64,000 bases of DNA from Candidatus Latescibacterota bacterium. GTDB lineage: Bacteria > Latescibacterota > UBA2968. Where the stretch lies: the NCBI GenBank assembly GCA_965207885.1, contig OZ242311.1:416001-480000 (forward strand), written 5' to 3'. Shown piece after piece: positions 15,236 to 40,204 of the stretch. The notes beneath the pieces are model-generated. The model was not told the DNA's origin, made no database searches, and worked only from the letters and a program-made list of their open reading frames with translations. Every line of letters starts with the position of its first letter. Positions within the stretch are counted from its first letter, which is position 1. Both the position numbers and the translations under genes were made by a program.

Positions 15236-16558
15236 TCAGGCGTCTGTTTCCGATGGTGTTTCTTGACGCGCCATGCGGATGCCTTTTTGTTCGTCAACGG
15301 TGCGCAAGAGGAGGCCGCCGACGATGAAGAACAGGCCCACGGTTGCCATGCCGTAGCGCTGGGATCCAGAGGCTTGTGTGATGACGCCCATGAGGAGGGG
15401 GCCGAGAAATGCCGTGGCTTTTCCCGAGAAGGCGTAGAAGCCGTAAAATTCGGTTTCTTTGTTTTTGGGGACAAATCGTCCCATGAGGGACCGGCTGGCT
15501 GATTGGTTGGGACCGGCAAATAGGCCGACGAGGAGGCCCGCGATCCAGAACCAGATTTTTTCCTGGGGTACGACGGCGATGATCGCCGCGATGACGAATC
15601 CGACAAGGGTGATCTGGATGGTGAGTTTGCCGCCCAGGCGGTCGTCCAGGTACCCAAAACACCATGCGCCAATGCCGGCTGCGATGTTGACGATGATGCC
15701 GAAGAAGAGGACTTCTTCAAATGTGAATCCAAATGTGCCTGCCGCATAAATACCGCCAAAGGCAAAGACGGTGATGAGGCCGTCGTTATAGACGAGGCGC
15801 GCGAGCAGTAGTTTGAAGATTTCCCGGTAGCGCTGGAGTTCGCGGAAGGTTTGCAGGATGCGTCGGTAGGATGCAGCCAAACTCAGTTTGCCGCCAGTTT
15901 GTCGCGCAGGTGTTTGGGGTAAATAGAAGAGGGCTGGGATGCTGAAGATGGCAAACCAGATTGCAACGCCGATGTTTGTCGCCCGGATGTGTGCATGGGT
16001 TTCTTTGGTGAGGCCAAACCACGGGGTTTCTGCGGATACAAAGCCGACCATGAGGACGGCCATTGAGAGCAGGCCCCCGAAATATCCCACGCCCCAAGCT
16101 TGTCCCGATATGCGACCGATGCGTTCGGGCGGGGCAATGTCGGGCAAGAAGGCATTGTAAAATACGATGCCCATTTCAAAGCAGATACAGGCGATGATGT
16201 AGAGGGTTAATGCATAGGTAGCTTGCCCCTGTTGCGGGAAATAGAGCAGTGCGGTGAAGATGACGGCGAGGAATGTGAAGAATATTAAAAAGCGTTTGCG
16301 ATACCCGCCCTGATCAGATAGCGCGCCGAGGGGTGGCGATAGCAGTGCGACGACGAGCATGATGATGCCGACGCCGCGAGACCATAAAGCTGTGCCGATA
16401 ATTTCATTTTCAGCGATGACTTTGGTAAAGAACGCCGCGTAGATAAATGTGGTGACGTTGTTGGCAAAGGACGAGTTTGCAAAGTCATACATCATCCACG
16501 AGATGATGGTTTTTCGGTGGGTGGTTTTGGGCATGGGAGAAGTGATAAGAGAAGTCAC
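15236..16558 (-). CDS. MFS transporter (UMF1/Atg22-like); alternative ATG start at 16534
   Basis: WMMYDFANSSF, YNAFLPDIA, QSASRSLM...EFYGFYAFSGK; 12 TM pattern. Confidence 0.92.
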   Translation of the reverse strand: MTSLITSPMPKTTHRKTIISWMMYDFANSSFANNVTTFIYAAFFTKVIAENEIIGTALWSRGVGIIMLVVALLSPPLGALSDQGGYRKRFLIFFTFLAVIFTALLYFPQQGQATYALTLYIIACICFEMGIVFYNAFLPDIAPPERIGRISGQAWGVGYFGGLLSMAVLMVGFVSAETPWFGLTKETHAHIRATNIGVAIWFAIFSIPALFYLPQTPARQTGGKLSLAASYRRILQTFRELQRYREIFKLLLARLVYNDGLITVFAFGGIYAAGTFGFTFEEVLFFGIIVNIAAGIGAWCFGYLDDRLGGKLTIQITLVGFVIAAIIAVVPQEKIWFWIAGLLVGLFAGPNQSASRSLMGRFVPKNKETEFYGFYAFSGKATAFLGPLLMGVITQASGSQRYGMATVGLFFIVGGLLLRTVDEQKGIRMARQETPSETDA

Positions 16559-17670
16559 ATCGACTCTTTGATAAAGGATTTTAACTCAGGTGTAATGTTC
16601 AAGAACACGGTTTCTTGGATGGGTGTTTTGGATTGATAGGAGATTACGAATCTGTACTCTCTTTGGCTGGCAAACTGGGTTCTCTTCAAGAAGAAAATAG
16701 CAGAGTTCGCTTCGACCATAGAAAGCTTCTCGAACATGGGTTCCTTTGGCTCGTCACTGTAGATGACCGGCCCATGGAAGACTTGGATAACCCCTTTGAG
16801 TGGCGGTCTCGCAGACTTGAGTTTTTCTCTATAAAGGGAATCTAATTCTGGATATTCCCTGAAGAGGTTATCTGTTTTGAAGAAGTCCTCGTCTGAAACA
16901 TCAACGACTTGTCTTGCGAATTCGATTCCTAGATGTTTTGCGAATTTTGCAGGATTAAGGATGACCGAGGCAGCGTCATACCCTTGGGGCATTTCAGATC
17001 CTTGTAGGGCTGTACAGTAGATGAATGAGTCGCTCTGTACCTCGTATGTAGTCTCTATTTTTCCAAGGTGCAGGTCGGGAGGTTCTACGAAAGAGATTCC
17101 ATGCCTCGTGAAAAACTCATTGAAGAACTCGTTGAAGTATTCTACGAAATTTGGAAAGACTTTGATTGGTCCGTCATTTATGTTTCCTATAACTTCCATT
17201 TCCATTAAGCGAGGGTCGCATAGAGGTGTGGATAAATTGTTTATAGGAATGTTATGTCTCGTGTAGAACTCCTCAAGTGTTGATTTTACCTTGAAGGTTC
17301 CCTCCCAAGAGTCTCCTATTCCTTCGAGCTCTTGGAAGTTTTTTCGATAGTGGTGGAGAGTTCCTAGCTTAAGAGATCTTCCATTGTGTGGAGCATATTT
17401 ACTTTCTGAGTATTTTATCAGACTATTGGGCGGTTTATGTAGAGTTTTCCGGTTTAGAAACTGGGATGAGTAATCTAAGGGGGCGGCGACGACGAGCAGG
17501 TGACGATTAACCAAGACCAGAGCTTCTAATCTTTTTTGTCCTGGGTACAGTTTCTCCCTTACGAAATCCAGAGGTTCAGTGGGAAGTTCAAATACATCTG
17601 GAAGAAGTTCAAGTATCTCCATGACGTCGTACGTTTTTTGGGCTTGGGTCTGGGGATTTTTTTGATGCAT
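16555..17670 (-). CDS. Hypothetical protein (AT-rich orphan)
   Basis: 371-aa ORF with atypical composition; KRTQFASQREYRFVI near the C-terminus; internal repeat. Confidence 0.7.
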   Translation of the reverse strand: MHQKNPQTQAQKTYDVMEILELLPDVFELPTEPLDFVREKLYPGQKRLEALVLVNRHLLVVAAPLDYSSQFLNRKTLHKPPNSLIKYSESKYAPHNGRSLKLGTLHHYRKNFQELEGIGDSWEGTFKVKSTLEEFYTRHNIPINNLSTPLCDPRLMEMEVIGNINDGPIKVFPNFVEYFNEFFNEFFTRHGISFVEPPDLHLGKIETTYEVQSDSFIYCTALQGSEMPQGYDAASVILNPAKFAKHLGIEFARQVVDVSDEDFFKTDNLFREYPELDSLYREKLKSARPPLKGVIQVFHGPVIYSDEPKEPMFEKLSMVEANSAIFFLKRTQFASQREYRFVISYQSKTPIQETVFLNITPELKSFIKESM

Positions 17671-17692
17671 AATTTGAGAACCTGCTGAGGTG

Positions 17693-18061
17693 CTACTTGG
17701 TCGCTAAACTCTGGCTTTGCAAACCTGGTACGTTTTGAAGTTCGGCGTCATTTGTCACCAGAACGGCCTGATGACAAATAGCGGTGGCGGCAATAATTGC
17801 ATCCGGTAACTTGAGTCCCGATTCTCGTCGCAAGCGAATAGCTTCTTTCTTTATATCTTGGTCTATACCGTAAATAGCCAATTTGGCAAGTGTGTCACGG
17901 ATTAAGGTTTCTTCTGTTGAAGTTAATTTCGAAAAAGAAAGTAATTCTATTTCAGTAATTATTGAACATATAATTTCGCCACGAGGCAACAAGTCTGCCA
18001 GACGGTCATTGAAGCGCAGAATGAAAATGTTGGTATCTATCACAAAACGTTCAGAGTTCAT
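17693..18061 (-). CDS. vapC: PIN-domain toxin (VapC-like)
   Basis: IDTNI, ITEIELL, LKLPDAIIAATA, LVTND. Confidence 0.9.
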   Translation of the reverse strand: MNSERFVIDTNIFILRFNDRLADLLPRGEIICSIITEIELLSFSKLTSTEETLIRDTLAKLAIYGIDQDIKKEAIRLRRESGLKLPDAIIAATAICHQAVLVTNDAELQNVPGLQSQSLATK

Positions 18062-18303
18062 TTCTCCCAACCCCGATCCCATTCAGCCCGAAGCTTTCGC
18101 TGAAACGCCACCGGGTCATCAATGTCTCGAAACGCTTGAATTTTGCCATCAAGATCCGATAGGACATCTGCACCTTCTGTTTTTCTTTGTTCGTCTTCCT
18201 GCAGGTAAACGGCAACACGAGCCTTTCGACCAAATGCCTCGCGAAAGTCAGTAGGAAGTTTGCCGTCTTTGGCAATGACGATTTCTTTTTCAATCAATTT
18301 CAT
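18058..18303 (-). CDS. Putative antitoxin of the PIN toxin
   Basis: 81 aa; ATGA overlap with vapC; DPVAFQRKLRAEWD tail typical of VapC partners. Confidence 0.75.
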   Translation of the reverse strand: MKLIEKEIVIAKDGKLPTDFREAFGRKARVAVYLQEDEQRKTEGADVLSDLDGKIQAFRDIDDPVAFQRKLRAEWDRGWEK

Positions 18304-18324
18304 GGTCTTTGTCCTTTCCTCATG

Positions 18325-18377
18325 CAATAAATGTACTGAATCACGCGAAATCGCGCCACCCTGTACATCTATATAGG
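18325..18377 (-). promoter_or_regulatory. Copy A of the triplicated promoter-like motif GGTGGCRCNATYTCGCNTGATTCRSTACATT
   Basis: Matches 35064-35117 and 40172-40204; has a TACATT -10-like hexamer and lies just downstream of the hsdR stop. Confidence 0.7.
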
Positions 18378-18383
18378 CAGACT

Positions 18384-21300: not shown

Positions 21301-21638
21301 CCGTTGGCGTTGCGGAATGTGACGGGTACGCCGTTGCGGATGAAATCGTACTTTTCGCGGTTGGTGGCGACGATGCTCTGCGAAGCAGTGGTGGATGTGA
21401 TTTTCCGGATTGCGTCGTTGTAGGCGTCTTCGGGTAGGCCGGGATTAAGAGTTCGCAGTGCGGTGAGCAGATAGCGTGTGAGCACTACTTCGCGGTCGGA
21501 GGTGCGACCAAGCAGGCTATCCTGTCCGAAGTCCTCGCTGTTATAGGCATAGACAGATTCCCAGCCGAGTTGCTGTTCGAGATACTCGGCTGTGGTCTGC
21601 TGAACGAGGGTGTCTTCAGTGTAAGGGGTTGGGTTCAT
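18384..21638 (-). CDS. hsdR: Type I restriction endonuclease subunit R
   Basis: RADIIGFVNGLPLLFIECK nuclease motif, HTQGAGKS, DEAHRTQYG, FTGTP, MWLTGFD, QAIARANR. Confidence 0.96.
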   Translation of the reverse strand: MNPTPYTEDTLVQQTTAEYLEQQLGWESVYAYNSEDFGQDSLLGRTSDREVVLTRYLLTALRTLNPGLPEDAYNDAIRKITSTTASQSIVATNREKYDFIRNGVPVTFRNANGEQTRERLRIFDFETPENNHFLCVRELWIKGDLYRRRADIIGFVNGLPLLFIECKNIHRDLKAAYNGNYSDYHDTIPHIFHHNAIVMFGNGEKAKLGSITSEWDHFHEWKRLSEEEPGVVDMETLLKGVCNKRDFMDIIENFILFDETSGETKKILARNHQFLGVNRAIDAVRDRKARQGKLGVFWHTQGAGKSYSMVLFTRKVHRKLGGNFTFLILTDRTDLDTQIYKTFAGCGVVNDRDPCRATDGPHLNQLLTEHKSHIFSLIQKFNQEDIDPKKGYTQRDDIIVITDEAHRTQYGELAANMRAALPNASYMGFTGTPLFKDDQITRRVFGDYVSTYDFQRAVEDNATLPLYYDARGDKLGVAIDDLNEKIAEKLEEAEISDIDEEQHLERELKRAYHIITAGKRLDQLARDFTRHYSTAWETGKAMLVCIDKITCVRMHKLIEFYWHEHIQKLETRLSRTTDEEEKTYLHQKIEWMRETRAAVVISEEQGEIEKFNKWELDIIQHRRLIKEGMDLPESMRNKPQYRNKQRMDLDEAFKDEEHPFRIAIVCAMWLTGFDVPCLSTLYLDKPLKAHTLMQAIARANRVNENKNNGLIVDYCGVLVHLRQALATFAGTQTDGDSTPTDPAKPDEELLSDLAEAIALVRDFLDKRNAPLDDIIEKTGFQRNAAIVACKEAVNENDETRKRFEVMCREVFKKYKACVNVQNIHTYRKDRDAIDIVYKSLQQDRNQADISDILMELQRIVDAAIEPTVSDVPANPHPDEDRRLYDISQIDFERLKREFVRIREKNTTVQNLRQAVEQKLQRLLQQNPLRTDFQHHYEAIVAAYNREKDQITIERTFEALLKLVQALDEEETRAVREGLDEESLAIFDLLKKPNLNANEITQIKKVAVSLLKKLKASNLRVHQWCEKEATRDAVRTSIYDFLFSDETGLPHKYTEKDIKTKTEDVFRHIYRAYPKLPSPYYESAA

Positions 21639-23395
21639 TTGGGTGGTCGATCAAAATAAAAACCCAACAGACTTTTAGAGGGATCTTCGTCGGTGAGGGT
21701 CAGCCGAACATGCTTATCGAAGTTAAAGCCATCGCTAAAGTCATCTCGCGGAACCATATCGGAATTTAGAGTACAAATGTACTGTACATTATTTGCACTT
21801 GATACCTTGCTCGCATGCTCAAATGCAAGTGCTCGTTGCCTGGAGTCAACACCGTCATAAAGACCACTGTCATGAATCAAGAAATTGAGTCTATCATTCT
21901 GTTTTGACATGATTTGTAATAGCATCAAATCGAAGCAGAAAATTTTCATCTTCTCAATGCCTTCGCTACCACTTTTGTCTATCTCGACATCGTACTTGAA
22001 CCCTGTTTCATCAATATTAATCACCAAGCGCCCGGGTGCCTCGTAAAGTGCCTGAGAGTTGTCGTTGAAAAGACGGAGTGGAAGGCTCCAAATATCTCTA
22101 CGTTCTTCGTGATCTTGCTCGGCAATCTTAGTCAATTCAGCCTTCGCTATATTTATATTGCGTTTCCGCGTGGTTCTATCCTTTATTTCTTCAAGCCAAG
22201 TAAGTTTCTGTTCTAAATTGCTGCGTATTTCAATGATGCGTTCCTGGAGTTTAGCCAGTTCTTGCAGTGCTCCGTGCGTTTCAAGAATTCTAAGCAAATC
22301 AGCCCTCTCATCAGTTAGTCGTCTAATTTCATCGTTTTGGACCCTGATTTTACGTTCTATGCGCCTGATTTCCGTTTCGAGAAAGACTCGCCTATTCTCG
22401 ATAATTTTCGAATGAAACTCTTTGGCTTCGGTAAGAGTACGACGAACCGAGTCAGAAAAAATCACACCAGTTTCTTCGTAGATATTGTCAATGGCTGTGT
22501 CAGAAGGGGGTGTCTCTGCTTCTACTGACTCTCTGTACCGAGACAAACGTCTTTGATCGACAATGTTCTTGTTGGTCAAATTGTGAATGGTTTCAGTGAT
22601 CTTATCAGCTTCGTTCTGAATTGTTTCGTACTGTGGGTGTACTTTGAATCCTTCTAAAGCATCTGATTCACGTTTGAGTTGACTTTCCAATTGAACGCAT
22701 TCCGCCTCTAACTCGCCAACTGAACCCCTTGCGCCTTCCATAGCACCGGACCTAATCGCTTCATCAATTGCCTTAATGCCCTTTTCTTGATCTTTCAATT
22801 CTTGCCATTTAGACGCATTCTCCCAGTTCATTTCAAGCAAAAGCGCGATGTGAAGTTGCCTGTCCCATGTCGCTTGGTGACGGGTATGACTGAATGGATC
22901 TATGTAAGCGGCGGTGCCGCGTCTTATGAAATATGAGATCAGACTACGGAAAGAAGGCCTGTGCCTGGTGGCATAGTCAGAGTGCAAGCCAAATAAAGCC
23001 CACCCCAAGAGTGCCCGCCAGCGGTCTAATTTGAACCTACCTCCTCTGAGGAGATCGAAACTATCAGGTTGTTCAATCCAACCAGTTGTCGGGCCTTCTA
23101 TATATAGCCAGTTCGGACTTTCAATAGCGCGGGTCACTTTCACACGGTTACCCTCAAGTGTAATTTCCAATGTAAATTCCCAATCTTGCAATGGATCTAT
23201 AGAGAGGCCCTGCCCCTTGCGAACGTTGGAGCCCAAACAAAAGTCAATAATGTCAATTAGAGTAGATTTACCCAGACCGTTTCGCGTGTCCTTTTGAGTA
23301 GATTCCTCAGTGCGGTCTGCTAAAATGACATTCAGTCCCGATGCAAATTCCACTGTATGAAATGAAGATTGGTTAGCAGTAATTCGATGAATCAT
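21635..23395 (-). CDS. lmuB: SMC-like ABC ATPase (DUF2326, ABC-three-component / short Lamassu LmuB)
   Basis: Walker A NGLGKST, coiled coil, signature-like KSGSEG, Walker B LIHDSG, YDGVDSRQ. Confidence 0.85.
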   Translation of the reverse strand: MIHRITANQSSFHTVEFASGLNVILADRTEESTQKDTRNGLGKSTLIDIIDFCLGSNVRKGQGLSIDPLQDWEFTLEITLEGNRVKVTRAIESPNWLYIEGPTTGWIEQPDSFDLLRGGRFKLDRWRALLGWALFGLHSDYATRHRPSFRSLISYFIRRGTAAYIDPFSHTRHQATWDRQLHIALLLEMNWENASKWQELKDQEKGIKAIDEAIRSGAMEGARGSVGELEAECVQLESQLKRESDALEGFKVHPQYETIQNEADKITETIHNLTNKNIVDQRRLSRYRESVEAETPPSDTAIDNIYEETGVIFSDSVRRTLTEAKEFHSKIIENRRVFLETEIRRIERKIRVQNDEIRRLTDERADLLRILETHGALQELAKLQERIIEIRSNLEQKLTWLEEIKDRTTRKRNINIAKAELTKIAEQDHEERRDIWSLPLRLFNDNSQALYEAPGRLVINIDETGFKYDVEIDKSGSEGIEKMKIFCFDLMLLQIMSKQNDRLNFLIHDSGLYDGVDSRQRALAFEHASKVSSANNVQYICTLNSDMVPRDDFSDGFNFDKHVRLTLTDEDPSKSLLGFYFDRPPK

Positions 23396-23619
23396 TGCTT
23401 CACCCTCACAATCAGACTGTTTTCTAGACTTATAGCACCGACGATGTGAAGCATGTCAAGTGCCAGCACAAACCGTTCAAAGGTGCCTATCGCGTCTTCC
23501 TCTCGAACGGTCTCCCACAGGCTGGTCACCGTCTGTGGTTGGTCAATCTCTTTGAGCAGGATGGCACCAACACCGATTAGAGCCTGGTCTTGGGAAATAT
23601 GCTTTGACGGAAGGATCAT
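23392..23619 (-). CDS. lmuC: ABC-3C middle component (MC6-like; Lamassu LmuC)
   Basis: 75 aa MILPSKHI...TVTSLW...FERFVLALDML; translationally coupled on both sides. Confidence 0.8.
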   Translation of the reverse strand: MILPSKHISQDQALIGVGAILLKEIDQPQTVTSLWETVREEDAIGTFERFVLALDMLHIVGAISLENSLIVRVKQ

Positions 23620-24377: not shown

Positions 24378-24643
24378 ACCGCCACCTCCCCATTCATCAA
24401 CTGCAGTAGGAGCACGTCGCGGGTCTGGGTGAGTTGTTCATTCGACTGATGGAGTTTCTCAATTTGAAGAACAATCGGAATGATCTGCTCCATAAATATA
24501 TCAGCGGTCCTGTCATATACCTGCAAAAACGTAACTCCCTGAAAGTCTAATTGCGACAAAAAATAGCTCCTGAACCTAAAGAACTAATTTTTTAGAGGAT
24601 AAAAAAGGAAATTCTGTTGGCCTGCGAGTGACCGAATGGCTGC
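24374..24643 (-). pseudogene. hsdS: Degenerate 3' part of a second hsdS (different TRD2 plus conserved tail)
   Basis: AAIRSLAGQQNFLFYPLKN* ... GSGAIF (frameshifted) ... LTQTRDVLLLQLMNGEVAV*; the last 61 nt are ~80% identical to 31775-31835. Confidence 0.8.
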
Positions 24644-24688
24644 GTTCATCAAGTGTGGACAAGAGACAGTGCGGACCATAGTTTGCCC

Positions 24689-28033: not shown

Positions 28034-28190
28034 ACTGAAATCTCCCATTCTGATTCTACCATAAGATTGGGTATGCATCAGACAGGCGGCAGTTTCGAAT
28101 ATATTACTTCAAATTTTCCACCGTGTTCTTGTTGCAACTTCGCTTCTTTTATATTTTGGTCTCTTGGCAATGTTTCCGCACAGTCCAAAC

Positions 28191-31681: not shown

Positions 31682-31774
31682 GATAAGTGAAGCTCACAAT
31701 AAGATGAGGTATGTATAATCCGATGCGTCGCCATTTAAGACAACAGGCGTGGCGTTCTTATTCTTGTTCGATGC

Positions 31775-32905
31775 TCAAACCGCCATCTCCCCACTCATCA
31801 ACCGCGGCAGAAGCAGGTCTCGGGCTTGGGTGAGTCTGCGTATTTCGGTAGAAAGTATGTCAATTTGTCGAAGGATCGGCGATATAATGCCTGTAAACTT
31901 GTCAATTAAACTGGTTTCAGGAACTACAAAAGGAATGAGCTTAAAGGTGTTTCGGATAATCGCATCGAAGATTGCGCCAACTGCTCGACTGCGAAATTGT
32001 TCAACGTTTTCTACCATGGCGAAGTAGAGAAATTGCTGATTCAGTGGTAGCTTGGCTACCAGAGCATAACAGGACTGATTCATCGCCATGTCAGTTTGGG
32101 CAAGATTAATTTTGCCGACTGTTCCGCGTGCGGTGATGAAAACGGTATCTTTTGGATATAGCCTACTGCTACAATTACGCAGTCCTTCTTCCGTAAGCGT
32201 TCGTTCTGTACTAAAAATGTATGCGTAATCCGTAGTATCCTTTGACGTGAAGAACGGAATCTCACCGTTCCAATAATCGGGCACACTCGTCTTAGGTGTC
32301 CCTCCGCTCAGGACATCCATTACATCGAGAGCATTTTTCTTTTCCCACCCTTCCGGCACGCCATCTGTGATGGTGACGTGTTCATGGCCGGGGAAACGGA
32401 GGTGGACGAACCACTTCTTGTAGAGTAGCTGCGCCGACTGTTCCAGCAATTGAATCCGCCGCCGGTTGTTTTCGATCAGGTCGTCGTAGGTGGAGACGAT
32501 AGAGGCAATGCGGTCTTGTTGGCTGAAAGATGGGATAGATACCATAAGTCGCAAAGCATTGTTGCGGTTCAGCCCTGGAACAGCAGCATCTGTGTTCATT
32601 TTTTGAAGCGGCAATGTCTTCAACAAGTAATAGGCGTATTGAAGCCTGATTCTCCCTTTAAGGACAACATAAAAGGTGGTATCAATTGGGAAGAAATCCT
32701 CTTGGCTCCAATGAACAGCACCAATAGTGCCTTTTCTACCAATGATGACACCCGGCCCTTTAATTAGTGGCGTTTCATGAAAATCTACAACACCTGCTGA
32801 TCCATACACAGGAAACCGGCCTTTTTTGCGTTGCCGCGCAGGGAGACCTTTACCGTATGCAAAGTCGATAAACTCACTCAATGGTTTTTTTCTCCCTTTA
32901 CTCAT
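31775..32905 (-). CDS. hsdS: Type I R-M specificity subunit
   Basis: Two TRDs; conserved QQDRIASIVSTYDDLIENNRRRIQLLE, VPEGWEK and RDLLLPRLMSGE. Confidence 0.95.
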   Translation of the reverse strand: MSKGRKKPLSEFIDFAYGKGLPARQRKKGRFPVYGSAGVVDFHETPLIKGPGVIIGRKGTIGAVHWSQEDFFPIDTTFYVVLKGRIRLQYAYYLLKTLPLQKMNTDAAVPGLNRNNALRLMVSIPSFSQQDRIASIVSTYDDLIENNRRRIQLLEQSAQLLYKKWFVHLRFPGHEHVTITDGVPEGWEKKNALDVMDVLSGGTPKTSVPDYWNGEIPFFTSKDTTDYAYIFSTERTLTEEGLRNCSSRLYPKDTVFITARGTVGKINLAQTDMAMNQSCYALVAKLPLNQQFLYFAMVENVEQFRSRAVGAIFDAIIRNTFKLIPFVVPETSLIDKFTGIISPILRQIDILSTEIRRLTQARDLLLPRLMSGEMAV

Positions 32906-32931
32906 ATTCCCAATCCTCTAAAATTCTTCAT
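32902..32931 (-). pseudogene. Relic 3' tail of an hsdM allele (MKNFRGLGI*) overlapping the hsdS start
   Basis: aag aat ttt aga gga ttg gga ata tga resembles the hsdM end IKRNFEALI* and keeps an ATGA overlap with hsdS. Confidence 0.55.
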
Positions 32932-32944
32932 TGTCTTCACACTT

Positions 32945-32998
32945 CTACCCCAAGTGCTCAATTTCAACATTCCTCCAGTATTCCTGGAGGTACTCAGC
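32945..32998 (-). repeat. 54-bp relic of the DUF488 gene tail (direct repeat of 33984-34037)
   Basis: 48/54 identical by eye; encodes AEYLQEYWRNVEIEHLG* versus AEDLREYWGNVEIEHLG*. Confidence 0.85.
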
Positions 32999-33015
32999 AA
33001 AGGGATTACAGGTTC

Positions 33016-33288
33016 TCACATCACATCCAATATCGCTTGCGGGTTTTTGTCTGCGACCATCAATAGTGTCCGAGCAGCACCTGATGGACGACGGCGGCCT
33101 TGCTCCCAATCTTGCAATGTGCGAACAGATACACCCATCAATTGGGCAAACTGAGTTTGAGAAAGACCCACTTTCGCTCTCGTTTGGGCAATGTCAGGTA
33201 CTGTGATGATACGACCGTGTTCGCCGCGCTTGATTTCCTGTAGGCCAGATAGAATCTCTTGACCAATATCTCTATTTTTTTCATTCAT
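33016..33288 (-). CDS. XRE/HTH antitoxin (NadS/HigA-like), orphaned
   Basis: GLSQTQFAQLMGVSVRTLQDWEQGRRRPSGAARTLL. Confidence 0.9.
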   Translation of the reverse strand: MNEKNRDIGQEILSGLQEIKRGEHGRIITVPDIAQTRAKVGLSQTQFAQLMGVSVRTLQDWEQGRRRPSGAARTLLMVADKNPQAILDVM

Positions 33289-33436
33289 TTTCAATTGCTG
33301 CTAATGAAAGGGAGCTGGCTGCATATACTATGGGCATGCCTTTGTGATTCCAGCGTCCACCATATCGCCGTGCCCCTTCACCCGTAAAAGCTGAAGCTAT
33401 GCGATGTGCCTGTACAATTCGCCAGGCTGTCAGCAT
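33281..33436 (-). pseudogene. Truncated RES-domain toxin (ParT/MbcT-like), 51 aa
   Basis: MLTAWRIV...AFTGEGARRYGGRWNHKGMPIVYAASSLSLAAIENE*; not in the ORF track, translated by hand. Confidence 0.88.
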
Positions 33437-33930
33437 CATGAAAATACCCCGTACTCAATTCGTCCCAGAAGGTCTTCAACTTCTCGAGCACCTAATTCGG
33501 TATCTGCATAATCCAGTGGAGAAACGCTACCAAGAGCAGTTAATGGCGTTGCAAACCATTGACGGGCAACTTCCTGTCCTCCCAGAACCTCGACAGCCCG
33601 ATCATACAACAGACCAATACGCAGCAGTCGTTCCGATTCATCGATATGCAACCGTCCCTCTTTTTTTTGATGTGTCAGTGTATGTACCGCAATTTTAGTC
33701 ACAGAAGCCAGAGCTTGTTCAGAAATGCCCATAGCGTTTTTTAATGCGTCAAATGTCGCTACTGGTAATCCTTCTTTTATTGCTGCAATCATTTCAGATC
33801 GGTTTTCAAAACGCCACCCCGCCGATGTCGCATAAGTCGTGGTCTGTCCTTCTGCGATAAGTGAAGCACCATCTGCTGTTCGAAATCCTGTGGGTGTCCA
33901 CCTCCAGACTTTCAATTGTTGAGTTTTCAT
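33436..33930 (-). CDS. Xre/MbcA/ParS antitoxin
   Basis: IKEGLP...ESERLLRI...AVEVLG...WF..P..ALG...PLD...GAREVEDLLGRIEYGVFS. Confidence 0.9.
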   Translation of the reverse strand: MKTQQLKVWRWTPTGFRTADGASLIAEGQTTTYATSAGWRFENRSEMIAAIKEGLPVATFDALKNAMGISEQALASVTKIAVHTLTHQKKEGRLHIDESERLLRIGLLYDRAVEVLGGQEVARQWFATPLTALGSVSPLDYADTELGAREVEDLLGRIEYGVFS

Positions 33931-33983
33931 GTATCCTCCTTTTTCCACGAGGCAATAATGCTGCCAGTGACTGCTTCTCCCTC

Positions 33984-34420
33984 CTACCCCAGATGCTCAA
34001 TTTCAACATTCCCCCAGTATTCCCGGAGGTCCTCGGCTACCAGACGTCTGTGGCAGTAATGGGGTTTGTCCTCGCTGCACAGCAGGCATGCATCTTCAAG
34101 GGTTTCTTGCTCAATCTCGTTTTCTATTTTCCGGGCGGCCATGAGATCGATAAAGTCGCGTTCATAAGTCTCCCAACTGCCGCGCTTTTTCTTGTAGGCG
34201 TCCAGTATGTCCTTTGTCGGTGCCAAGCTCGGCAGATGCGTGTAATCCATGCCGCAAATTTGTTTTAGAAAGTAGGCAAGGTCATTTTTTTCGCAAATCC
34301 CGACAACTGGGACACGTTATTGAGTCGCACATCAACGACCCGCTTGACGCCTGCTGTTTGCAAGTTGTCGAAGAACTGTTCTGCGCTCTTTTTGGTGAAG
34401 CCAATGGTGAAAATTTTCAT
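33984..34420 (-). pseudogene. DUF488 family protein frameshifted in a poly-A tract
   Basis: MKIFTIGFTKKSAEQFF...DVRLNNVSQLSGFAKK, then A7 at 34285-34291; A8 would restore NDLAYFLKQICGMDY...CLLCSEDKPHYCHRRL. Confidence 0.85.
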
Positions 34421-35013
34421 TGTGTAGCCTCCGCATCAACATACGCAATGCGCTGTTCCTGTGCCGCGTATGCCCGGTCTTCCAATTCATCAGGGGTGAG
34501 AAATAGATCCTGTGCTGGCAATCGCAGTTGCTCAGACAGGCGTTTCATCGCCTCGTCGTGTGGCTCCAGTGATCCATCCTCAAGAATGTGTGTGACATTC
34601 AGGCCGCTTGCCACCAATTCGCGAGCGACGAGAATTGTCCGGTGACAGTCCAGAGGGTCCTTCTCTGCACACATCAAGGCAATGCGTCTGTGTCTGCTCC
34701 CATCTCGGACGCGCTTTATTCCGGATTGAAACAGTGGGGTTTCGGCGAGCGCGCGATACTGCACCCGGCCGTTTTCGTAACATTGTGGATCGTCACTGCG
34801 TGCGCCGAGTTCCTTCCCGAGAAAAACATAGGCAATACCCCGGGCTTTCAGGGCTTCTACCAGATTTTCTCGATTGAATTGCGGTTGCCAACGGCTATAT
34901 GGAACCGACCGTACGTCTGCAACAGCATCCACGCCATGTTGTTTCAGGAGGGAGACGAAATCCTCAAACTCATGCGTCGAGTGTCCCACGGTGAATATTC
35001 TCGTTTTTGTCAT
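34417..35013 (-). CDS. DUF488 family protein
   Basis: IFTVGHS, DVRSVPYS, LGAR, ALMCAEKDPLDCHR. Confidence 0.92.
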   Translation of the reverse strand: MTKTRIFTVGHSTHEFEDFVSLLKQHGVDAVADVRSVPYSRWQPQFNRENLVEALKARGIAYVFLGKELGARSDDPQCYENGRVQYRALAETPLFQSGIKRVRDGSRHRRIALMCAEKDPLDCHRTILVARELVASGLNVTHILEDGSLEPHDEAMKRLSEQLRLPAQDLFLTPDELEDRAYAAQEQRIAYVDAEATQ

Positions 35014-35063
35014 CGCGGTTGCCGACCTTATTGGTCCGAAGATTTCGTTGAAACACCATTATA

Positions 35064-35117
35064 CAATAAATGTAGCGAATCATGCGAAATAGTGCCACCT
35101 TTGCACATCTATATTGG
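35064..35117 (-). promoter_or_regulatory. Copy B of the triplicated promoter-like motif
   Basis: caataaatgtagcgaatcatgcgaaatagtgccacctttgcacatctatat aligns to 18325-18377. Confidence 0.7.
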
Positions 35118-35170
35118 TACAGGTTTGGTGCGCGATTAGATGTGCGCGTTTGGCTGCTCGTACAAGTGCG
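35114..35170 (-). repeat. 57-bp relic of the small gene at 35669-35863 (direct repeat of 35739-35795)
   Basis: 49/57 identical; ALVRAAKRAHLIAHQTCT versus ALIRAAKRAHLIAHQTGT. Confidence 0.85.
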
Positions 35171-35320
35171 AAAGCAAAAGATAACTCAATGCTGTTACAC
35201 AAGCAACATCGCGGCGAAAAAATGGGCAAGCAGTACATATCTTTCACATGACCGCCCATTCATCGCTCAAAATGTACAGAGATTGTTCTGCGCCAAACAC
35301 GCAATCCACAAATTCAGGTT

Positions 35321-35650
35321 GTGAACAAGGGGGCAATACAGCATATTGAAGGCATAATTTTTGAAATTATTATGAAGGAGGGTCTCATGGATCTCATCCG
35401 CGAATCATCTCTTATCCAATACTTTAAGCGAGAAGGCAGAGAGGAAGGTTTTGAGCAAGGGGAAAGAAAAAGCACGATCGAAGATATCCTTGAAGTGTTG
35501 GAGATTCGCTTTGGTCTGAGCGAGACGCATCCCTTATCTGCTCGTATTTCGGCTATTGACAATGTGCAGCACCTTAAGCAGTTGCACCGTGCGGCGATAC
35601 AGGTGTCCAATCTCGATGACTTTGAGGGCATGTTAGATGCAACGGCGTGA
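35321..35650 (+). pseudogene. C-terminal fragment of an Rpn/DUF4351-like protein
   Basis: IRESS...EGREEGFEQG...ILEVLEIRFG...LKQLHRAAI; N-terminal domain absent; the only + strand ORF in the island. Confidence 0.55.
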
Positions 35651-35668
35651 CGCGATTGCCCAATAAAC

Positions 35669-35863
35669 TCAAATGTCGTTGTACATCTCCGGGTCCGGGT
35701 CAATTTCCACGACTTTGCCGTCGCGCATGACCACAACTTTGGTGCCGGTCTGGTGCGCGATCAGGTGTGCGCGTTTGGCGGCTCGTATAAGCGCGGTAGG
35801 TGCCGCTTGCATGTCGGGATCGTCCAGTTTGGACACAGGGATTTGATGTTTTTCTTTTTTCAT
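35669..35863 (-). CDS. Small partner protein of the zeta-like ATPase
   Basis: 64 aa; ATGA overlap; ALIRAAKRA...VVVMRDGKVVEI pattern. Confidence 0.75.
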   Translation of the reverse strand: MKKEKHQIPVSKLDDPDMQAAPTALIRAAKRAHLIAHQTGTKVVVMRDGKVVEIDPDPEMYNDI

Positions 35864-36384
35864 TTCTTGTTCTCTCCTTCCTCTTCCAAAACAAGCGTAT
35901 CGCCGCTATTGTTAAATTTTTGCCAATGGTTGACGCAATGGCGATAGATGTCGTAGAAATTTTTTAGACCGGCGTGAAAACGACGGCGTATAACGGCTTC
36001 TGGAACATCATGTCCGCCCTGGTTTACACGCGATTTTACGCGCGTGATCGCTTCTTCGGGCGTTGCAAGAGACAGAAATATGAGCTTTACTGTGTAACCA
36101 TCAGCGCGCCATTGACTGATTCTTCTCACATAGCCCCGGCCGGATAGCGTCGTTTCAATGGCGAAGTTCCTGCCTACACGGGCGTGGTTGTCAATTTCCT
36201 CCAGCATCAGCCGCCCGGCGCGGATGGCCGCGTCAGCAGGGCGAAAGGGAGATAGTCCCGCTGCTATCAGGTCGGCATTGACGAAAATAGGACAATCCGC
36301 TTCGTTGGGCAAATACTCCTGTCCAAAGGTTGTTTTGCCGGCTCCGTTTGGTCCCGCGATGATAATGATTTTCTTAGCCTTCAT
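35860..36384 (-). CDS. Zeta-toxin-like P-loop ATPase/kinase (COG4185-like)
   Basis: IAGPNGAGKTT, FVNADLIA, FAIETTLSG, RV.QGGHDVP. Confidence 0.9.
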   Translation of the reverse strand: MKAKKIIIIAGPNGAGKTTFGQEYLPNEADCPIFVNADLIAAGLSPFRPADAAIRAGRLMLEEIDNHARVGRNFAIETTLSGRGYVRRISQWRADGYTVKLIFLSLATPEEAITRVKSRVNQGGHDVPEAVIRRRFHAGLKNFYDIYRHCVNHWQKFNNSGDTLVLEEEGENKK

Positions 36385-36641
36385 GTATCTCCCCAGCGCC
36401 GTTTAGTTCCTGCTCAATCTCTTCAATGATCGGCAGCGATTCGACCAAATAATTTGTGCAAGTACCTCTTGCACAATTTGGCGATCGTCTCAGGCGACAG
36501 CACACTTCACACATTCGCGGCAGGGATGCCGTTCCAATGGCGGAAATTTCACCCTTTACCCTTCAAAGCATCGTCAGGATGGCGCATCAAACAGTGATAC
36601 CAGGGGAATTGTGCAACGGTGCGTTGCACAATTTGGCGGTC
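36385..36641 (-). pseudogene. Collapsed relics of YhcG/DUF1016 (PD-(D/E)XK) genes
   Basis: Minus-strand DRQIVQRTVAQFPWYH and DRQIVQEVLAQIIW, then LVESLP-IIEEIEQEL tail; two TTGTGCAA-N7-TTGCACAA palindromes. Confidence 0.7.
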
Positions 36642-36689
36642 ATCACATACGGTAGCACCTTTCACACTTCACACTTCCTACTTCCCACT

Positions 36690-38762
36690 TCAAATCAGTG
36701 CTTCAAAATTTCGCTTAATCGTCGCTGCCAATGATACGGCCTCGTCATTGAGTTCTTCTATTTCGTCGTGTATCTCGCGCAGGGTCTCGGCAAAGTCGAA
36801 ATTTTCGTCTTCTTCTTCGGGTGCAACGCCGACGTAGCGGCCGGGGGTCAGGCTCCAGTCATTGGCTTCGATTTCGGCGCGATCTACCAGTTTGACCAGT
36901 CCTTCTACGTCGCAGAGTTTCGCTTCGGGAAAACGCTCGGTGAGCCAGCGTGCCTGCTGGTAGAAGTAGTTTATCTGTTTGAGTTGTTCGATTGCGATCT
37001 TCCGTGCCTCATCTGCGGTTCTGCGGGCGCGAGTGATGTCGGTCCTGTTATTGATTGTGCTCGAGGTTTCGCAGATATCTGTTATGCGGATGGCGAGTTT
37101 GTAGAGGCTGTCTGTGCGTTCGGATAGGTCGCGACTAATTTCGATCAGAGAGGCGAATTCTGCCACCTGTTTGTTCGGGTCGGTGCTGGTATTGGGTGCG
37201 GTTTCTGTGATGGCGGTGCGGAACTGTTCAATAGCCTCGGGGAGTGATGTTCGCGCTTTGTCGTATTCGGCGAGGGTTTCGGCATGCTGTCCGTTTTTCA
37301 GCAGGGTTTTCAGGGATGGTGCGAACAGGTCGTGCAATTGGGTGAGTGCGTTGACGAAGTCGGGTAAAGGGTGGATGGTTTCGCCGTCTTTGATCACGAA
37401 GCACGCATGGCTTTCTTTCAAAATGCGTTGCAGGTAGTTGGATATCAGGTCGCGGAATCGCTCGGTTTCGTCGCGATAGAGGTGGATAATGGCGAGGATG
37501 TTTTGCTGTTGCTCGGGGCTGAAGTCGTATATTTTGCGCGTGACCTGGCGATAGATGTTGCGGGCGTCGATCATCAGTACTTTGTCGCGGTGGGCTTCGG
37601 GTTTGGCGCGGTTGAGAAACCACAATTCGCAGGGGACGGTGCGGGTGTAGAAAAAGTTGGAGCGAATGGCGATCATGGCTTCTACATCGCCGATTTCTAC
37701 CAGTTTTTGGCGCACTTCGGCTTCGCTGCTGCCAGCACTCGATGCTTGAGAGGACATGACAAAGCCTGCCCTGCCCGTTTCGTTCAGGTAGCTGTAGAAG
37801 TAGCTGATCCAGACGTAGTTGCCGCTGCTGACTTTGTTATTTTGATTGACACCGGGCAAGCCAAAGGGCAGGCGAGGGTCGGTTTTGACTTTGTCGGCGT
37901 CGATTTCATCGACATTGAAGGGTGGATTGGCCATTACGTAGTCGGCTTTGCCGAGCAATTCGTGCGGGTCTTCGTAGTAGGTGATGGCCTGACGGATGTC
38001 GCCTTCAAGGCCATGTACTGCGAGGTTCATCCTGGCAAGGCGGATGGTGGTGCCGTTTTTTTCTATGCCGCGGAAGGTGAGTTGTTCGGTGGGATGTTGC
38101 CCCTGTTCTTCGACCGTGCGCGCACTTTGCACGAACATGCCGCCAGACCCGCAGGCCGGGTCGAGTACTGTGCCGCTGTTGGGTTCGAGCACATGGGCGA
38201 TCAGGGAAACGAGTGAGACGGGGGTGAAGAATTCGCCGTCGTCGTGTGCTTTCTCGTCGGCGAATTGCGTGAGAAAGTATTCGTAGATGCGCCCGAAGAC
38301 ATCGCCAGAGACTTGTTTCAGTTCGTCGGGGTTGAGCGTGCGGAGGAGTTGGCCGAGTACGTCGTTGTCCAGTTCCTGGTATTCGCTTTTGGGTAATGCA
38401 CCCCGCAGGCTTTCGTAGTCATCCTCAATGGAGTCCATTGCTTCGATGACGGCTTTGATGCGGTCCTCGCTGTCGGGCAGGGCGACGAGGTAATCGAACT
38501 GCGCGTTGGGTCGGAGGTAGATGGCGTTTTTCTGGGAGAAGTCCTCTTTGGTGAGTGCTCGTTTTTTACCGCCGCGGGTGGGCAGGTTGGCTTCAATGTC
38601 GTCCTTTACAGATAGGTATCGGCTGTACGCATAGCGCAGGAATACCAGGCCCATGACCGGGAGAAAGTATTCGTTGCTGGCATAAGGGGAGTTGGCCCGC
38701 AGAGTATCGGCTGCTCCCCACAGGCGCCTTTCAATGGCTTCGATGTGTTCGAGTTGTGGCAA
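36690..38762 (-). CDS. hsdM: Type I R-M N6-adenine methyltransferase subunit
   Basis: LWGAADTLRAN, GEFFTP, DPACGSGGM, NPPF, WSLTPGRYVG. Confidence 0.96.
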   Translation of the reverse strand: MPQLEHIEAIERRLWGAADTLRANSPYASNEYFLPVMGLVFLRYAYSRYLSVKDDIEANLPTRGGKKRALTKEDFSQKNAIYLRPNAQFDYLVALPDSEDRIKAVIEAMDSIEDDYESLRGALPKSEYQELDNDVLGQLLRTLNPDELKQVSGDVFGRIYEYFLTQFADEKAHDDGEFFTPVSLVSLIAHVLEPNSGTVLDPACGSGGMFVQSARTVEEQGQHPTEQLTFRGIEKNGTTIRLARMNLAVHGLEGDIRQAITYYEDPHELLGKADYVMANPPFNVDEIDADKVKTDPRLPFGLPGVNQNNKVSSGNYVWISYFYSYLNETGRAGFVMSSQASSAGSSEAEVRQKLVEIGDVEAMIAIRSNFFYTRTVPCELWFLNRAKPEAHRDKVLMIDARNIYRQVTRKIYDFSPEQQQNILAIIHLYRDETERFRDLISNYLQRILKESHACFVIKDGETIHPLPDFVNALTQLHDLFAPSLKTLLKNGQHAETLAEYDKARTSLPEAIEQFRTAITETAPNTSTDPNKQVAEFASLIEISRDLSERTDSLYKLAIRITDICETSSTINNRTDITRARRTADEARKIAIEQLKQINYFYQQARWLTERFPEAKLCDVEGLVKLVDRAEIEANDWSLTPGRYVGVAPEEEDENFDFAETLREIHDEIEELNDEAVSLAATIKRNFEALI

Positions 38763-39025
38763 GGGTCATTTCCTTTTGTTTAAATTTTACTGTTTTCACA
38801 TCTTCTATTCACACTTCAGATATATGCTTGTTTCTCACACCGGTGGTGCGAGTTTTTCAGAAGATAAGGCATTGCAAAAGGCCATCAATCAAAACCATTG
38901 CACAGCGCGCGAGTCCGTTTCGCAGAGAACATCCTTATGGCATCCCGACTATGAAGGCTCTTGTAGGGCGTATTACCACAAGAACGATTTGCGCTGTGCC
39001 AGCCCCTCGGCGTTTGAGAGCGGCA

Positions 39026-39075
39026 TTTTTTGCCTCCTTTTTTTTGCTGCTGAAAAAAAGGAGGTCGCCGAAGGC
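39026..39075. repeat. Hairpin / REP-like intergenic element
   Basis: cctccttttttt(t)-gctgctg-aaaaaaaggagg inverted repeat between fic and hsdM. Confidence 0.5.
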
Positions 39076-39145
39076 AGAACAAAAAAAAAGATGGAATTAT
39101 CCAACACTTTCGACAAGCAACGCAGGTCTTCTTAAATCTTGACGC

Positions 39146-40129
39146 TTATTGCATTCCCCTTCCGCGTGTGGTGAGGCGATATTTCTGGTTTCTCGCGGTG
39201 GGTGCTTCAGGGCGTGTCATTTCCACGAGTCCTGCGGACAGTGCCGGGCGAATGTAGTTTTCGCGGAATGTGGGACGATGTGAGAGGCCCAGTTCTGCCA
39301 TGAGTTCGGCGGCGGTTTTTGGACCTGTTCGCAAGGCGGCGAGTAGCCGAGCTACTTGGTCGGTTACTTGGTCGGTTACTTGGTCGGTTCCCTGGAGTGC
39401 ATCCAGAATAATCTCCAGCATGAATGTAATGAATGGCGTGCTCTCGCCCTCTGATGAACTCTGTCTGATGGCTTTGTAATAGTCGCTTTGTCGGGCATGG
39501 ACCAGGCTTTCTACGGGGATGTGGGCGAACAGGGGTTTCCAGCGGGTCAGTATCAGGGTTTGCCAGAGTCGTCCCATCCGTCCGTTGCCATCTTCAAAGG
39601 GGTGAATGAACTCAAATTCGTAGTGGAAGACCGAACTGGCGATTAGTGGATGCTCATCGGTGCTACCCAGCCATGCCAGCAAGTTTGCCATGAGTTGCGG
39701 TACGCGTCCGGGAGGCGGGCCTATGTGATGGACTTCGCCTCCGCCCATAACGCCAATGTCTTTGTGACGATATTGTCCGGGCGCATCCAATAGACCGATC
39801 ATCAGGATTTCGTGAGCGCGCAACAGGTCGGCTTCGCTGGCGGGGTTCCACTGCTGGTATTGGTCGTAGGCTTTGATGGCGTTGCGGGCTTCCTGTATGT
39901 CTCTGAGTGGCGCAATAACGGGCTTGCCGTCGAGTATTGTGGAGACTTGTTCTTCGCTGAGGATATTGCCTTCAATGGCGAGAGATCCGCGAATCGTGAG
40001 GATGCGGTTGATTCGTCGCAGGCGCAAGTCCTGCGAGATGCCCGTCGCACGACCAATCGCTTCACCGATTTCTTCAATGCGAAAGAGAATGTCCGGCGTG
40101 ATTGTGTATGGTGGTTTTTCGATTTTCAT
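39146..40129 (-). CDS. Fic family protein (class II-like) with C-terminal HTH
   Basis: HPFEDGNGRMGR; N-terminal inhibitory SLAIEGN; TDQV tandem linker. Confidence 0.93.
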   Translation of the reverse strand: MKIEKPPYTITPDILFRIEEIGEAIGRATGISQDLRLRRINRILTIRGSLAIEGNILSEEQVSTILDGKPVIAPLRDIQEARNAIKAYDQYQQWNPASEADLLRAHEILMIGLLDAPGQYRHKDIGVMGGGEVHHIGPPPGRVPQLMANLLAWLGSTDEHPLIASSVFHYEFEFIHPFEDGNGRMGRLWQTLILTRWKPLFAHIPVESLVHARQSDYYKAIRQSSSEGESTPFITFMLEIILDALQGTDQVTDQVTDQVARLLAALRTGPKTAAELMAELGLSHRPTFRENYIRPALSAGLVEMTRPEAPTARNQKYRLTTRGRGMQ

Positions 40130-40171
40130 TGTTTATATAGGGTGGTCGATATTGCACAGGAGGCATGTATC

Positions 40172-40204
40172 AATGTACTGAATCAGGCGAGATTGCGCCA
40201 CCCT
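40172..40204 (-). promoter_or_regulatory. Copy C of the triplicated promoter-like motif, upstream of fic
   Basis: aatgtactgaatcaggcgagattgcgccaccct versus aatgtactgaatcacgcgaaatcgcgccaccct (30/33). Confidence 0.7.

Follow-up and report, generated by a model that had tools for sequence, protein, structure and literature searches.

A hotspot of defence and toxin–antitoxin modules between two core genes, with a type I restriction-modification backbone and an array of gene relics, in a Latescibacterota genome

How do defence genes come to lie between the genes of a restriction-modification (R-M) system? The question is raised by a locus in the Candidatus Latescibacterota bacterium assembly GCA_965207885.1 (contig OZ242311.1, positions 416,001–480,000 of the forward strand; the genome is called G000 here), in which cargo of 3.8 kb and of 10 kb separates the hsdM, hsdS and hsdR genes of a type I R-M system. 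All coordinates are positions in this 64,000-nt stretch (the window), and the island studied covers approximately 16555–40204. According to surveys, many defence genes are located inside R-M operons, and an entry route is not described in the accessible portions of these surveys (10.1101/2024.01.29.577857; PMC11411939). An earlier note on this DNA had regarded the R-M locus as an exchange hotspot in which each swap leaves a short gene relic. The comparison with related genomes indicates that the island is probably a chromosomal defence hotspot between two core genes, in which exchangeable modules around a type I R-M backbone are turned over by recombination, serial displacement and erosion.

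The island is flanked by the gene of an Atg22-like MFS transporter on the left and by a SMP-30/gluconolactonase-like SGL gene on the right (Table 1). Both are core genes: the MFS protein is present in 41/41 genomes searched, and of the 21 genomes that represent the genus (with G000), 17 have SGL. For the comparison, we used 13 genomes of the same genus in which MFS and SGL are located together on one contig (the relatives). Both flanks are found in 13/13 with nucleotide identities of 87–96%, and the interval between them ranges from 6.5 to 32 kb (23.9 kb in G000). The protein and nucleotide maps contain the same modules, and the orders and combinations of the modules vary among the relatives. 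In G000, the boundaries are free of integrase, tRNA and mobile machinery, so that the interval, with its invariant flanks and variable content, is a core-gene-bounded, integrase-free hotspot. In the G000 island itself, Pfam gave no match to integrase or transposase families among 30 open reading frames (ORFs), the fragments and the family-less proteins, in agreement with the earlier note, and no tRNA gene was detected in the 64-kb window. All island genes of G000 are on the minus strand; the Rpn-like remnant listed in Table 1 is on the plus strand. The GC content is 0.40–0.47 across 22–33 kb, compared with 0.51 for the genome. Three of the 13 relatives (G003, G008 and G010) are without hsdM, hsdS and hsdR, yet keep Fic, small64 and toxin–antitoxin (TA) pieces. 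Because these relatives keep the hotspot, the core genes, rather than the R-M system, define it. Thus the earlier description of the R-M locus as an exchange hotspot holds for the variability, but the bounds are those of the core genes.

The anatomy of the island and its variability were observed directly. The 371-aa gene is found in 0/13 relatives and is unique to G000 among the genomes compared. The 845/318-aa gene pair is found in G004 only (1/13), ABC-3C in 2/13, Schlafen in 6/13 and hsdR in 10/13. Other cargo in the relatives comprises an OLD-family ATPase, a HipA-like kinase with a partner gene, DuOB, SIR2-TPR, AlbA_2-HATPase_c_4, a PLD nuclease, a DEAD helicase and a Na/Ala symporter. 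The slot after hsdS is occupied by five different genes over 11 genomes (Schlafen in five, OLD in two, the 845-aa gene in two, a 415-aa gene in one and a 1488-aa gene in one). The cargo is shuffled in the 13 relatives, and the identical cargo that the earlier note would have counted against exchange was not seen. Cargo sharing is also out of step with flank similarity: the flank-nearest relatives are G003, G008 and G010, which lack the hsd genes, and G006, the most distant by its flanks (87–88%), has ABC-3C at 90% identity. Within hsdS, the first target-recognition domain (TRD1) is common to three relatives (G004, G012 and G015), TRD2 is common to a different four (G002, G015, G017 and G019), and a 165-nt core is common to 10/13. 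As the TRDs are reassorted around a common core, short conserved pieces appear to act as crossover points.

Relics of genes are located at approximately 9 of the 16 cargo junctions, according to a tally over the annotation and the comparisons; 'nearly every' junction, as claimed before, is too many. Of the seven relics listed in the earlier note, six are real. Relic positions coincide with synteny breakpoints, so that the check which the earlier note proposed on cargo boundaries in related genomes came out in its favour. Blastn of 14000–43000 against itself, together with a repeat search, gave six significant pairs. Four of them are the DUF488 tail (32935–32998 and 33974–34037; 86% over 64 nt, E 1.9e-14), the small-gene midsection (35114–35170 and 35739–35795; 86% over 57 nt, E 2.8e-12), the hsdS tail (24372–24434 and 31773–31835; 83% over 63 nt, E 3.4e-11) and a 44-nt internal repeat at about 36.5 kb (36469–36512 and 36624–36667; 80% over 44 nt, E 1e-3); the other two are pairs of the D1 element treated below, which the earlier note does not list. 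The DUF488 and small-gene relics are thus recovered as first described. The hsdS relic is also real, but it is not a 3' half: it aligns with the end of the intact hsdS over 56–58 codons, the last ~15% of the gene, and homology to longer relics in relatives reaches 24643.

The YhcG fragments, the hsdS relic and the region upstream of Schlafen gave nothing useful in Pfam and were identified through the relatives. In G009 and G002, a full YhcG gene (DUF1016_N and YhcG_C) is located between hsdM and the zeta-like gene. Blastn against it places 36385–36436 in the tail and 36444–36502 in the interior, as expected from the earlier note. The same two genomes, which keep the intact YhcG, have an internally deleted hsdM, with residues 1–189 and 362–689 left in G009 (L017) and residues 1–86 and 566–689 left in G002 (L026). 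The region upstream of Schlafen had been taken for a VapB tail fused to that gene. It is actually a HipA_C-like head: 28044–28111 is matched in G012 and G009 by the 5' untranslated region (5'UTR) and the opening ~17 codons of a HipA_C-like gene. At GAATGGG it passes into the terminal ~20 nt of an hsdS, and these nucleotides overlap the Schlafen ATG. The hsdM tail relic encodes MKNFRGLGI* and overlaps hsdS by ATGA. This relic, claimed from the G000 sequence, is matched in the locus L040, where an intact hsdM ends in ATIKKNFEELGI* with the same ATGA overlap, and the adjoining hsdS is 65% identical. The RES head corresponds to positions 2–47 of the 157 of Pfam RES (E 4e-14), also as claimed, and full-length RES (154 aa) is present in G017 and G008. 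The DUF488 tail relic is nearer to the intact allele of G002 than to the copy of G000 itself, and the relic, the following heptamer repeat and the hsdM tail are nearly identical to the end of the intact G002 gene. This is a signal of a foreign allele.

Other scars, of which those of DUF488b and the Rpn-like gene are additional to the earlier note, are of a simpler kind. DUF488b is one intact ORF in four of five aligned relatives (G009, G010, G002 and G012). In the second small64-like copy (small64b), 83 nt are missing in comparison with G019, and the Rpn-like gene has a deletion of ~730 nt in G000. The scars of YhcG, small64b, the Rpn-like gene and DUF488b are best read as plain deletions or, for a part, a frameshift. 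Three eroded TA-type modules have lost the toxin part and kept the antitoxin part: RES/Xre, RelE/HTH3 (a RelE-like partner is located upstream of the HTH3 antitoxin in G004) and the Rpn-like gene, of which the C-terminal domain remains from the long form. This pattern would follow from selection against losing the antitoxin first.

The arrangement of the hsdS pieces bears most directly on the route of entry. Three hsdS 3' ends (the intact gene ending at 31775, then 28030–28050 and 24374–24643) are located in series in direct orientation, each directly before a cargo block. Units of the donor type were observed elsewhere. In five relatives, the hsdS tail runs into the Schlafen ATG with an ATGA overlap. 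ABC-3C was found at 29 loci in other taxa, and six long ORFs upstream of it were examined by Pfam: the ORFs of L048 and L067 encode an intact HsdS, that of L051 encodes part of an HsdS, and that of L050 the C-terminal part of HsdR. Serial displacement is favoured because the serial hsdS 3' ends, the intact donor-type units and the variable slot after hsdS are found together. A phase-variable hsdS shufflon does not fit; the hsdS pieces are all direct repeats on one strand, and there is no recombinase.

The backbone consists of the minus-strand hsdM, hsdS and hsdR, with exchangeable defence and TA modules filling the gaps between them. For the turnover of these modules we infer the following pathway, its direction and order being deduced from the nesting of the tails. 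By a first route, modules would be turned over by homologous recombination with DNA of related lineages at conserved segments, namely the flanking genes, hsdR, hsdM, Fic, the core and 3' end of hsdS, and short common stretches (D1 and the DUF488 tail, for example). By a second route, illegitimate joints would be formed at microhomologies of 3–8 nt. Cargo downstream of hsdS would enter as an hsdS–cargo unit, the cargo start overlapping the hsdS stop. The incoming unit would take the place of the 5' part of the hsdS already there, and the old cargo would be shifted downstream together with the hsdS tail. ABC-3C would have arrived first, Schlafen next and the 845/318-aa pair last. Deletions and a frameshift also erode modules, with the antitoxin part of TA modules retained. 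The series of nested hsdS tails is compatible with one homologous anchor and one illegitimate joint, which is the mechanism of the earlier note; several other scars are plain deletions or frameshifts. The junction sequences themselves were read directly, and microhomology is seen at joints for which parental forms are available. The HipA head and the hsdS tail share GAATGGG(G) (7–8 nt), RES and HTH3 share ~4–6 nt (TGAA), and the joint of the 83-nt deletion in small64b has ACC.A, all of them raw overlaps.

As several scars are deletions, it should be considered whether one large ancestral island has only been decaying, the relics being deletion scars and the differences among genomes differential loss. 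Deletion is the simplest account of the YhcG, 83-nt small64b, ~730-nt Rpn-like and DUF488b scars. Erosion of TA loci to remnants has been described (PMC13617665), and a SIR2-TPR/AlbA_2/symporter/PLD block located between Fic and hsdM in relatives is missing from G000. However, the sum of all cargo is present in no genome. The five genes in the slot after hsdS, the TRD reassortment, the three hsdS tails from different alleles and the 371-aa gene absent from every relative also argue against decay alone, as does the GC content of the 845/318-aa region (~0.40, compared with 0.51 for the genome). Pure erosion is therefore an unlikely explanation of the whole island.

Several points weigh against recombination with serial displacement, or limit it. 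Five of the seven relic junctions recur in one to six other species, and they are not a record of events in this lineage. The junctions of the DUF488 tail with HTH3 (3/13 relatives), of the hsdS relic with ABC-3C (2/13), of the YhcG tail with its motif (6/13), of the hsdM tail with hsdS (1/13, with the adjacent edge between hsdM tail and DUF488 tail in 2/13) and of the HipA head with Schlafen (1/13) are shared, and only those of RES with HTH3 and of D1b with the small64 relic are found in 0/13. Likewise, no relative (0/13) has the junctions on either side of the 371-aa gene or the Fic–hsdM joint. The shared junctions therefore stem from older events, inherited or moved with the modules. The scar array is real, but it is largely inherited or transported with its modules, and the claim that each event leaves a relic of ~50 bp is not supported; the relic lengths range from ~20 to ~270 nt. 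Module identities to the relatives (82–96%) are near the flank identities (87–96%), so that recent transfer is not evident. IS (insertion sequence) transposases are located inside the hotspot of three relatives (G017, G014 and G006), although G000 has none; therefore transposition may contribute. Microhomologies of 3–6 nt are short raw overlaps that BLAST extension can inflate. The RES/HTH3 and HipA/hsdS-tail joints would be produced equally by deletion from a longer ancestor. An event in progress was not caught, and the direction and order of displacement follow from the nesting alone.

The test for selection on the relics also counts on this side, because it is significant for a single pair. 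In the 57-nt small64 pair, the eight differences and two amino-acid changes counted earlier were confirmed (six synonymous and two non-synonymous; ratio of non-synonymous to synonymous divergence, pN/pS, 0.13; binomial P 0.008). This relic is orthologous to the second small64-like copy of G019 and G006, and the result supports the view that it diverged as a working gene before truncation. The DUF488 pair has three synonymous and three non-synonymous differences (P 0.09, not significant). For the hsdS pair, pN/pS is 0.6–0.8, and for the hsdS relic orthologues involving G000 it is 0.69–0.87; neither is significant, and the latter is consistent with near-neutral drift. The evidence for selection, which had been suggested for the 57-nt relic, is confined to that pair.

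Repeats and odd junctions can also be produced when co-occurring strains are assembled into a chimera. Related variants are indeed present in the same runs, extra depth is observed at 32.9–36.7 kb, and alternative joints exist. The Logan contigs of the runs X19 and X21, however, are identical to 21500–33147, 33235–35006 and 34977–35347 with 0 differences, and they bridge exactly both relic junctions unique to G000 (RES/HTH3 and D1b/small64 relic). X19 and X21 are from one sample, contain 97–99% of the sampled words and are possibly from the source sample; they are a second assembly and not a second sample. Most of the other junctions recur in independently assembled genomes. According to these results an assembly artefact is hardly credible, and the strain chimera named in the earlier note as a danger did not materialize. 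Alternative joints resembling those of the relatives were seen in two runs of other studies, X1 and X23. They cover only parts of the stretch with 90–99% likeness, and the parts not covered are not evidence.

D1, an intergenic element of ~40–60 nt, would be the candidate site in a site-specific process. All three copies in G000 are in the island (0.02 expected), after small64, after hsdR and before Fic. D1 was found in 16/20 congeners and in 0/20 genomes of other genera, and the matches listed are all inside or beside the MFS–SGL interval where this interval is on one contig. The downstream gene varies (DUF488a, DuOB, HTH3, vapB, a PIN fragment with Xre, or Fic). D1 could thus be imagined as an integron attC-like or Xer-like site served by a recombinase encoded elsewhere. 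The restriction to island and genus and the varying downstream gene would suit this. Against it, Pfam scans gave no recombinase in the island, no conserved inverted repeat or palindrome was detected across the copies, and Rfam gave no match at E<=1 on 16000–41000. Moreover, D1 is present at three boundaries only, and most boundaries, such as the hsdS-linked ones and the hsdR start, are without it. The copies differ at the 5' edge, and in several genomes the 3' edge grades into the 5'UTR and first codons of vapB. Because of these edges, the simplest reading of D1 is a duplicated vapBC upstream region, now serving as shared homology. Site-specific cassettes are very improbable. A scan for sigma-70 and terminator consensus sequences did not flag the D1 copies.

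The heptamer GAAGTGTGAAG was tried as an island-specific junction signal and was rejected; it is a genome-wide intergenic repeat. Repeats of this type (GAAGTGT/GAAGTAG units) have 112 exact 11-mer copies in the genome (~3 expected). Copies in the window are located at 2558–2645, 32935–32945, 36660–36691, 38807–38817 and 40279–40289. The repeat is mostly intergenic, often beside two other dispersed hairpin-like repeats, and it is concentrated at 0.4–0.9 Mb of the genome.

A full Rpn-like gene of ~300 aa is present inside the hotspot in G004, G006, G017 and G019, and the G000 remnant still has the portion that an RpnS-type intragenic antitoxin would occupy. Full-length copies are located at L028:13025–13924, L032:13753–14676, L034:12536–13459 and L013:15828–16739. 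G000 has nine full-length paralogues of the family, and 1744 homologues were found in the database at E<=0.001. Among the 120 homologues listed, none had a Pfam domain or an informative name. As to the PD-(D/E)XK domain of the Transposase_31 type that would be expected at the N-terminus of an Rpn protein, the four full-length proteins gave no Pfam match at E<=1. The NCBIfam model TIGR01784 matched at E 4e-4 and 20 bits, under its cut-off of 52, and the Atlas neighbours carry the name Rpn family (score 0.97). In an alignment of the four full-length proteins and the G000 remnant (A1), length differences of eight and four residues are found in an EEGI/EQGI run, so that the C-terminal helical domain contains four-residue repeats that vary in number. 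Length variation in steps of four residues is a hallmark of Rpn proteins (PMC10400941). A PDB sequence search with the protein gave chance-level matches only. The AlphaFold2 model is poor (pLDDT 56); its N-terminal matches reach Z ~5 only, and generic helical bundles prevailed in the fold search. Rpn proteins increase RecA-independent recombination, and one of their genes, rpnD, adjoins the immigration control region of E. coli (PMC5350276). For this reason the Rpn-like gene in the present hotspot is a notable parallel. The Rpn family is also a defence TA system itself. It is tempting, but doubtful, to go one step further: by analogy with what is proposed for rpnD, the hsdS 3' end might be a general docking point at which hsdS–cargo units stack by serial displacement, with an island-resident Rpn-family nuclease supplying the breaks for microhomology joints. 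If so, the origin of 'embedded' defence genes across bacteria would be explained, and hsdS-tail relics would be predicted before embedded systems in general.

The cassette-like variation of the immigration control region was reportedly treated by Sibley and Raleigh in 2004. This region (hotspot 36 of Enterobacteriaceae) is close in kind: it is a core-anchored island in which type I R-M and other restriction systems are swapped like cassettes, and its anchors, unlike those of hotspot 37, are free of a mobilizing integrase (PMC12707154). The adjoining rpnD/yjiP promoted RecA-independent recombination encompassing the island (PMC5350276). The present locus differs in the phylum and the anchor genes, in the hsd genes separated by cargo and in the nested fragments. 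In the case of defence genes embedded in R-M operons (PrrC, TgvAB and PDC candidates), same-strand cargo is also located between the hsd genes (10.1101/2024.01.29.577857; PMC11411939), and two cargo sets here match PADLOC PDC models (PDC-M68 and PDC-M45) as in those operons. The embedded-gene survey left out pseudogene-bearing systems, and the words 'recombination', 'remnant' and 'hotspot' do not occur in its main text; the fragments found here suggest an entry route, which we propose. Orphan arrays of Rhs, contact-dependent inhibition (CDI) and type VI secretion (T6SS) loci are alike in that the upstream anchor is conserved, the resident 3' part is displaced, and old 3' ends and immunity genes accumulate downstream, and homology-facilitated illegitimate recombination was proposed as their mechanism (PMC5361080). 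In the present locus, by contrast, the displaced gene is hsdS and not a toxin, the retained cargo consists of whole defence systems, and the place of the kept 'immunity' genes is taken by antitoxins left over from eroded TA pairs. TA spots between core genes also lack mobile elements, recombine at the flanking core genes and later decay to remnants; that study concerns Photorhabdus, and the R-M backbone is a feature of the locus here (PMC13617665). The literature on truncated, remnant or orphan hsdS, judged by titles and abstract openings, deals mainly with phase-variable systems and methylome surveys, and hsdS tails as displacement scars were not found in it.

The locus is thus a new and well-supported case of an island type already known, and not a new system. 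With it, the integrase-free hotspot type known from the immigration control region is extended to a phylum that is uncultured, and it adds a testable suggestion on how cargo enters R-M operons. The trace to be checked elsewhere consists of hsdS tails nested before successive cargo, microhomology joints and orphan antitoxins after toxin loss, and it rests on the 13 congeners and the 29 ABC-3C loci of other taxa.

Table 1. Features of the island and its flanks in G000, in minus-strand order, with positions in the window
Feature	Positions	Strand	Basis
SGL gene, SMP-30/gluconolactonase-like, right flank	40416-41312		
D1c, copy of locus-specific D1 element, upstream of Fic	40164-40204	-	repeat search, blastn
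Fic/DOC with Fic-like_C domain, SoFic-like; conserved right-hand member	39146-40129	-	Pfam, PADLOC
hsdM, type I methyltransferase, 690 aa, full length	36690-38762	-	Pfam N6_Mtase, HsdM_N; PADLOC MTase_I PDLC03035 end to end
YhcG (DUF1016) relic: tail 36385-36436, internal motif twice (36444-36512, 36598-36668)	36385-36668	-	blastn, relatives
Zeta-toxin/AAA_33-like kinase gene	35860-36384	-	Pfam
small64, 64 aa, overlaps stop of zeta-like gene; presumed partner	35669-35863	-	
Rpn-like ~300-aa gene, C-terminal third; N-terminal two thirds deleted	35321-35650	+	alignment A1
small64b, truncated second copy; small64 homology 35114-35170	35098-35259	-	3' end intact in G019
D1b, upstream of the first DUF488 gene	35061-35117	-	blastn
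DUF488a, candidate PDC-M45B	34417-35013	-	Pfam, PADLOC
DUF488b, split into two frames by 1-nt deletion in A-run	33984-34420	-	alignment to relatives
Xre/MbcA/ParS-type antitoxin, toxin gone	33436-33948	-	Pfam, NCBIfam
RES toxin head, ~47 of 154 codons, within 52-codon ORF 33281-33439	33296-33439	-	Pfam
HTH_3/MqsA-like antitoxin (HTH3) without toxin	33016-33294	-	Pfam, NCBIfam
DUF488 tail relic, 17 codons and stop; then heptamer repeat 32935-32945	32945-32998	-	blastn
hsdM tail relic, stop overlapping hsdS ATG	32902-32931	-	
hsdS, intact, two target-recognition domains	31775-32905	-	Pfam Methylase_S (2 stretches), PADLOC
845-aa and 318-aa gene pair, no known family; GC ~0.40	28191-31681	-	
HipA_C-like 5'UTR and head relic	28044-28111	-	match to G012, G009
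hsdS tail relic, ~20 nt, overlaps Schlafen ATG; GAATGGG common with HipA head	28030-28050	-	
Schlafen/AlbA_2-domain protein; likely start 28033, longest ORF start 28078	24689-28033	-	Pfam
hsdS 3' relic; open frame 24374-24583, stop overlapping start of first ABC-3C gene	24374-24643	-	blastn, alignment
ABC-3C three-gene system: HNH/CTD10, MC6, DUF2326 ATPase; PDC-M68	21635-24377	-	Pfam, PADLOC
hsdR, 1084 aa	18384-21638	-	Pfam HSDR_N, SWI2_SNF2, ResIII, T1R_D3-like, T1RH-like_C; PADLOC REase_I E 2.4e-162
D1a, between hsdR stop and vapB	18322-18377	-	blastn
vapB-like gene (18058-18303) and PIN/VapC gene (17693-18082)	17693-18303	-	Pfam
371-aa gene, no known family	16555-17670	-	
MFS gene, Atg22-like transporter, left flank	15236-16558		

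The gene order in Table 1 was assigned from Pfam, PADLOC and NCBIfam. The domain set of the type I R-M system is complete (HsdR with nuclease, motor and C-terminal domains, HsdM, and HsdS with two TRDs). Searches of Pfam, PADLOC and NCBIfam gave no significant match to the 845-, 318- and 371-aa proteins; PHROGs gave a single weak match, to the 371-aa protein (phrog_13198, E 1e-4). Because of their position in the island, these family-less genes are candidates for defence genes, and so is the Schlafen-domain protein. Residues 182–1079 of this 1129-aa protein match the phage family phrog_18693 (unknown function) at E 2.8e-118.

At the right-hand end, the segment 35671–35796 of small64 is present in 13/13 relatives, and the first ~244 aa of Fic are also kept in 13/13. 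A recurrent break is located within Fic near residue 244 (39398–39406), and the C-terminal part differs in 8/13 relatives. The Fic-like_C domain is also found at the end of AlbA_2-HATPase_c_4 genes in relatives and, as a fragment, before hsdS in G012. Within 39291–39427, a 12-nt unit encoding TDQV is present three times between the Fic and C-terminal domains. A contig of run X1 has one additional 12-nt TDQV unit at 39352, which indicates that the copy number is variable.

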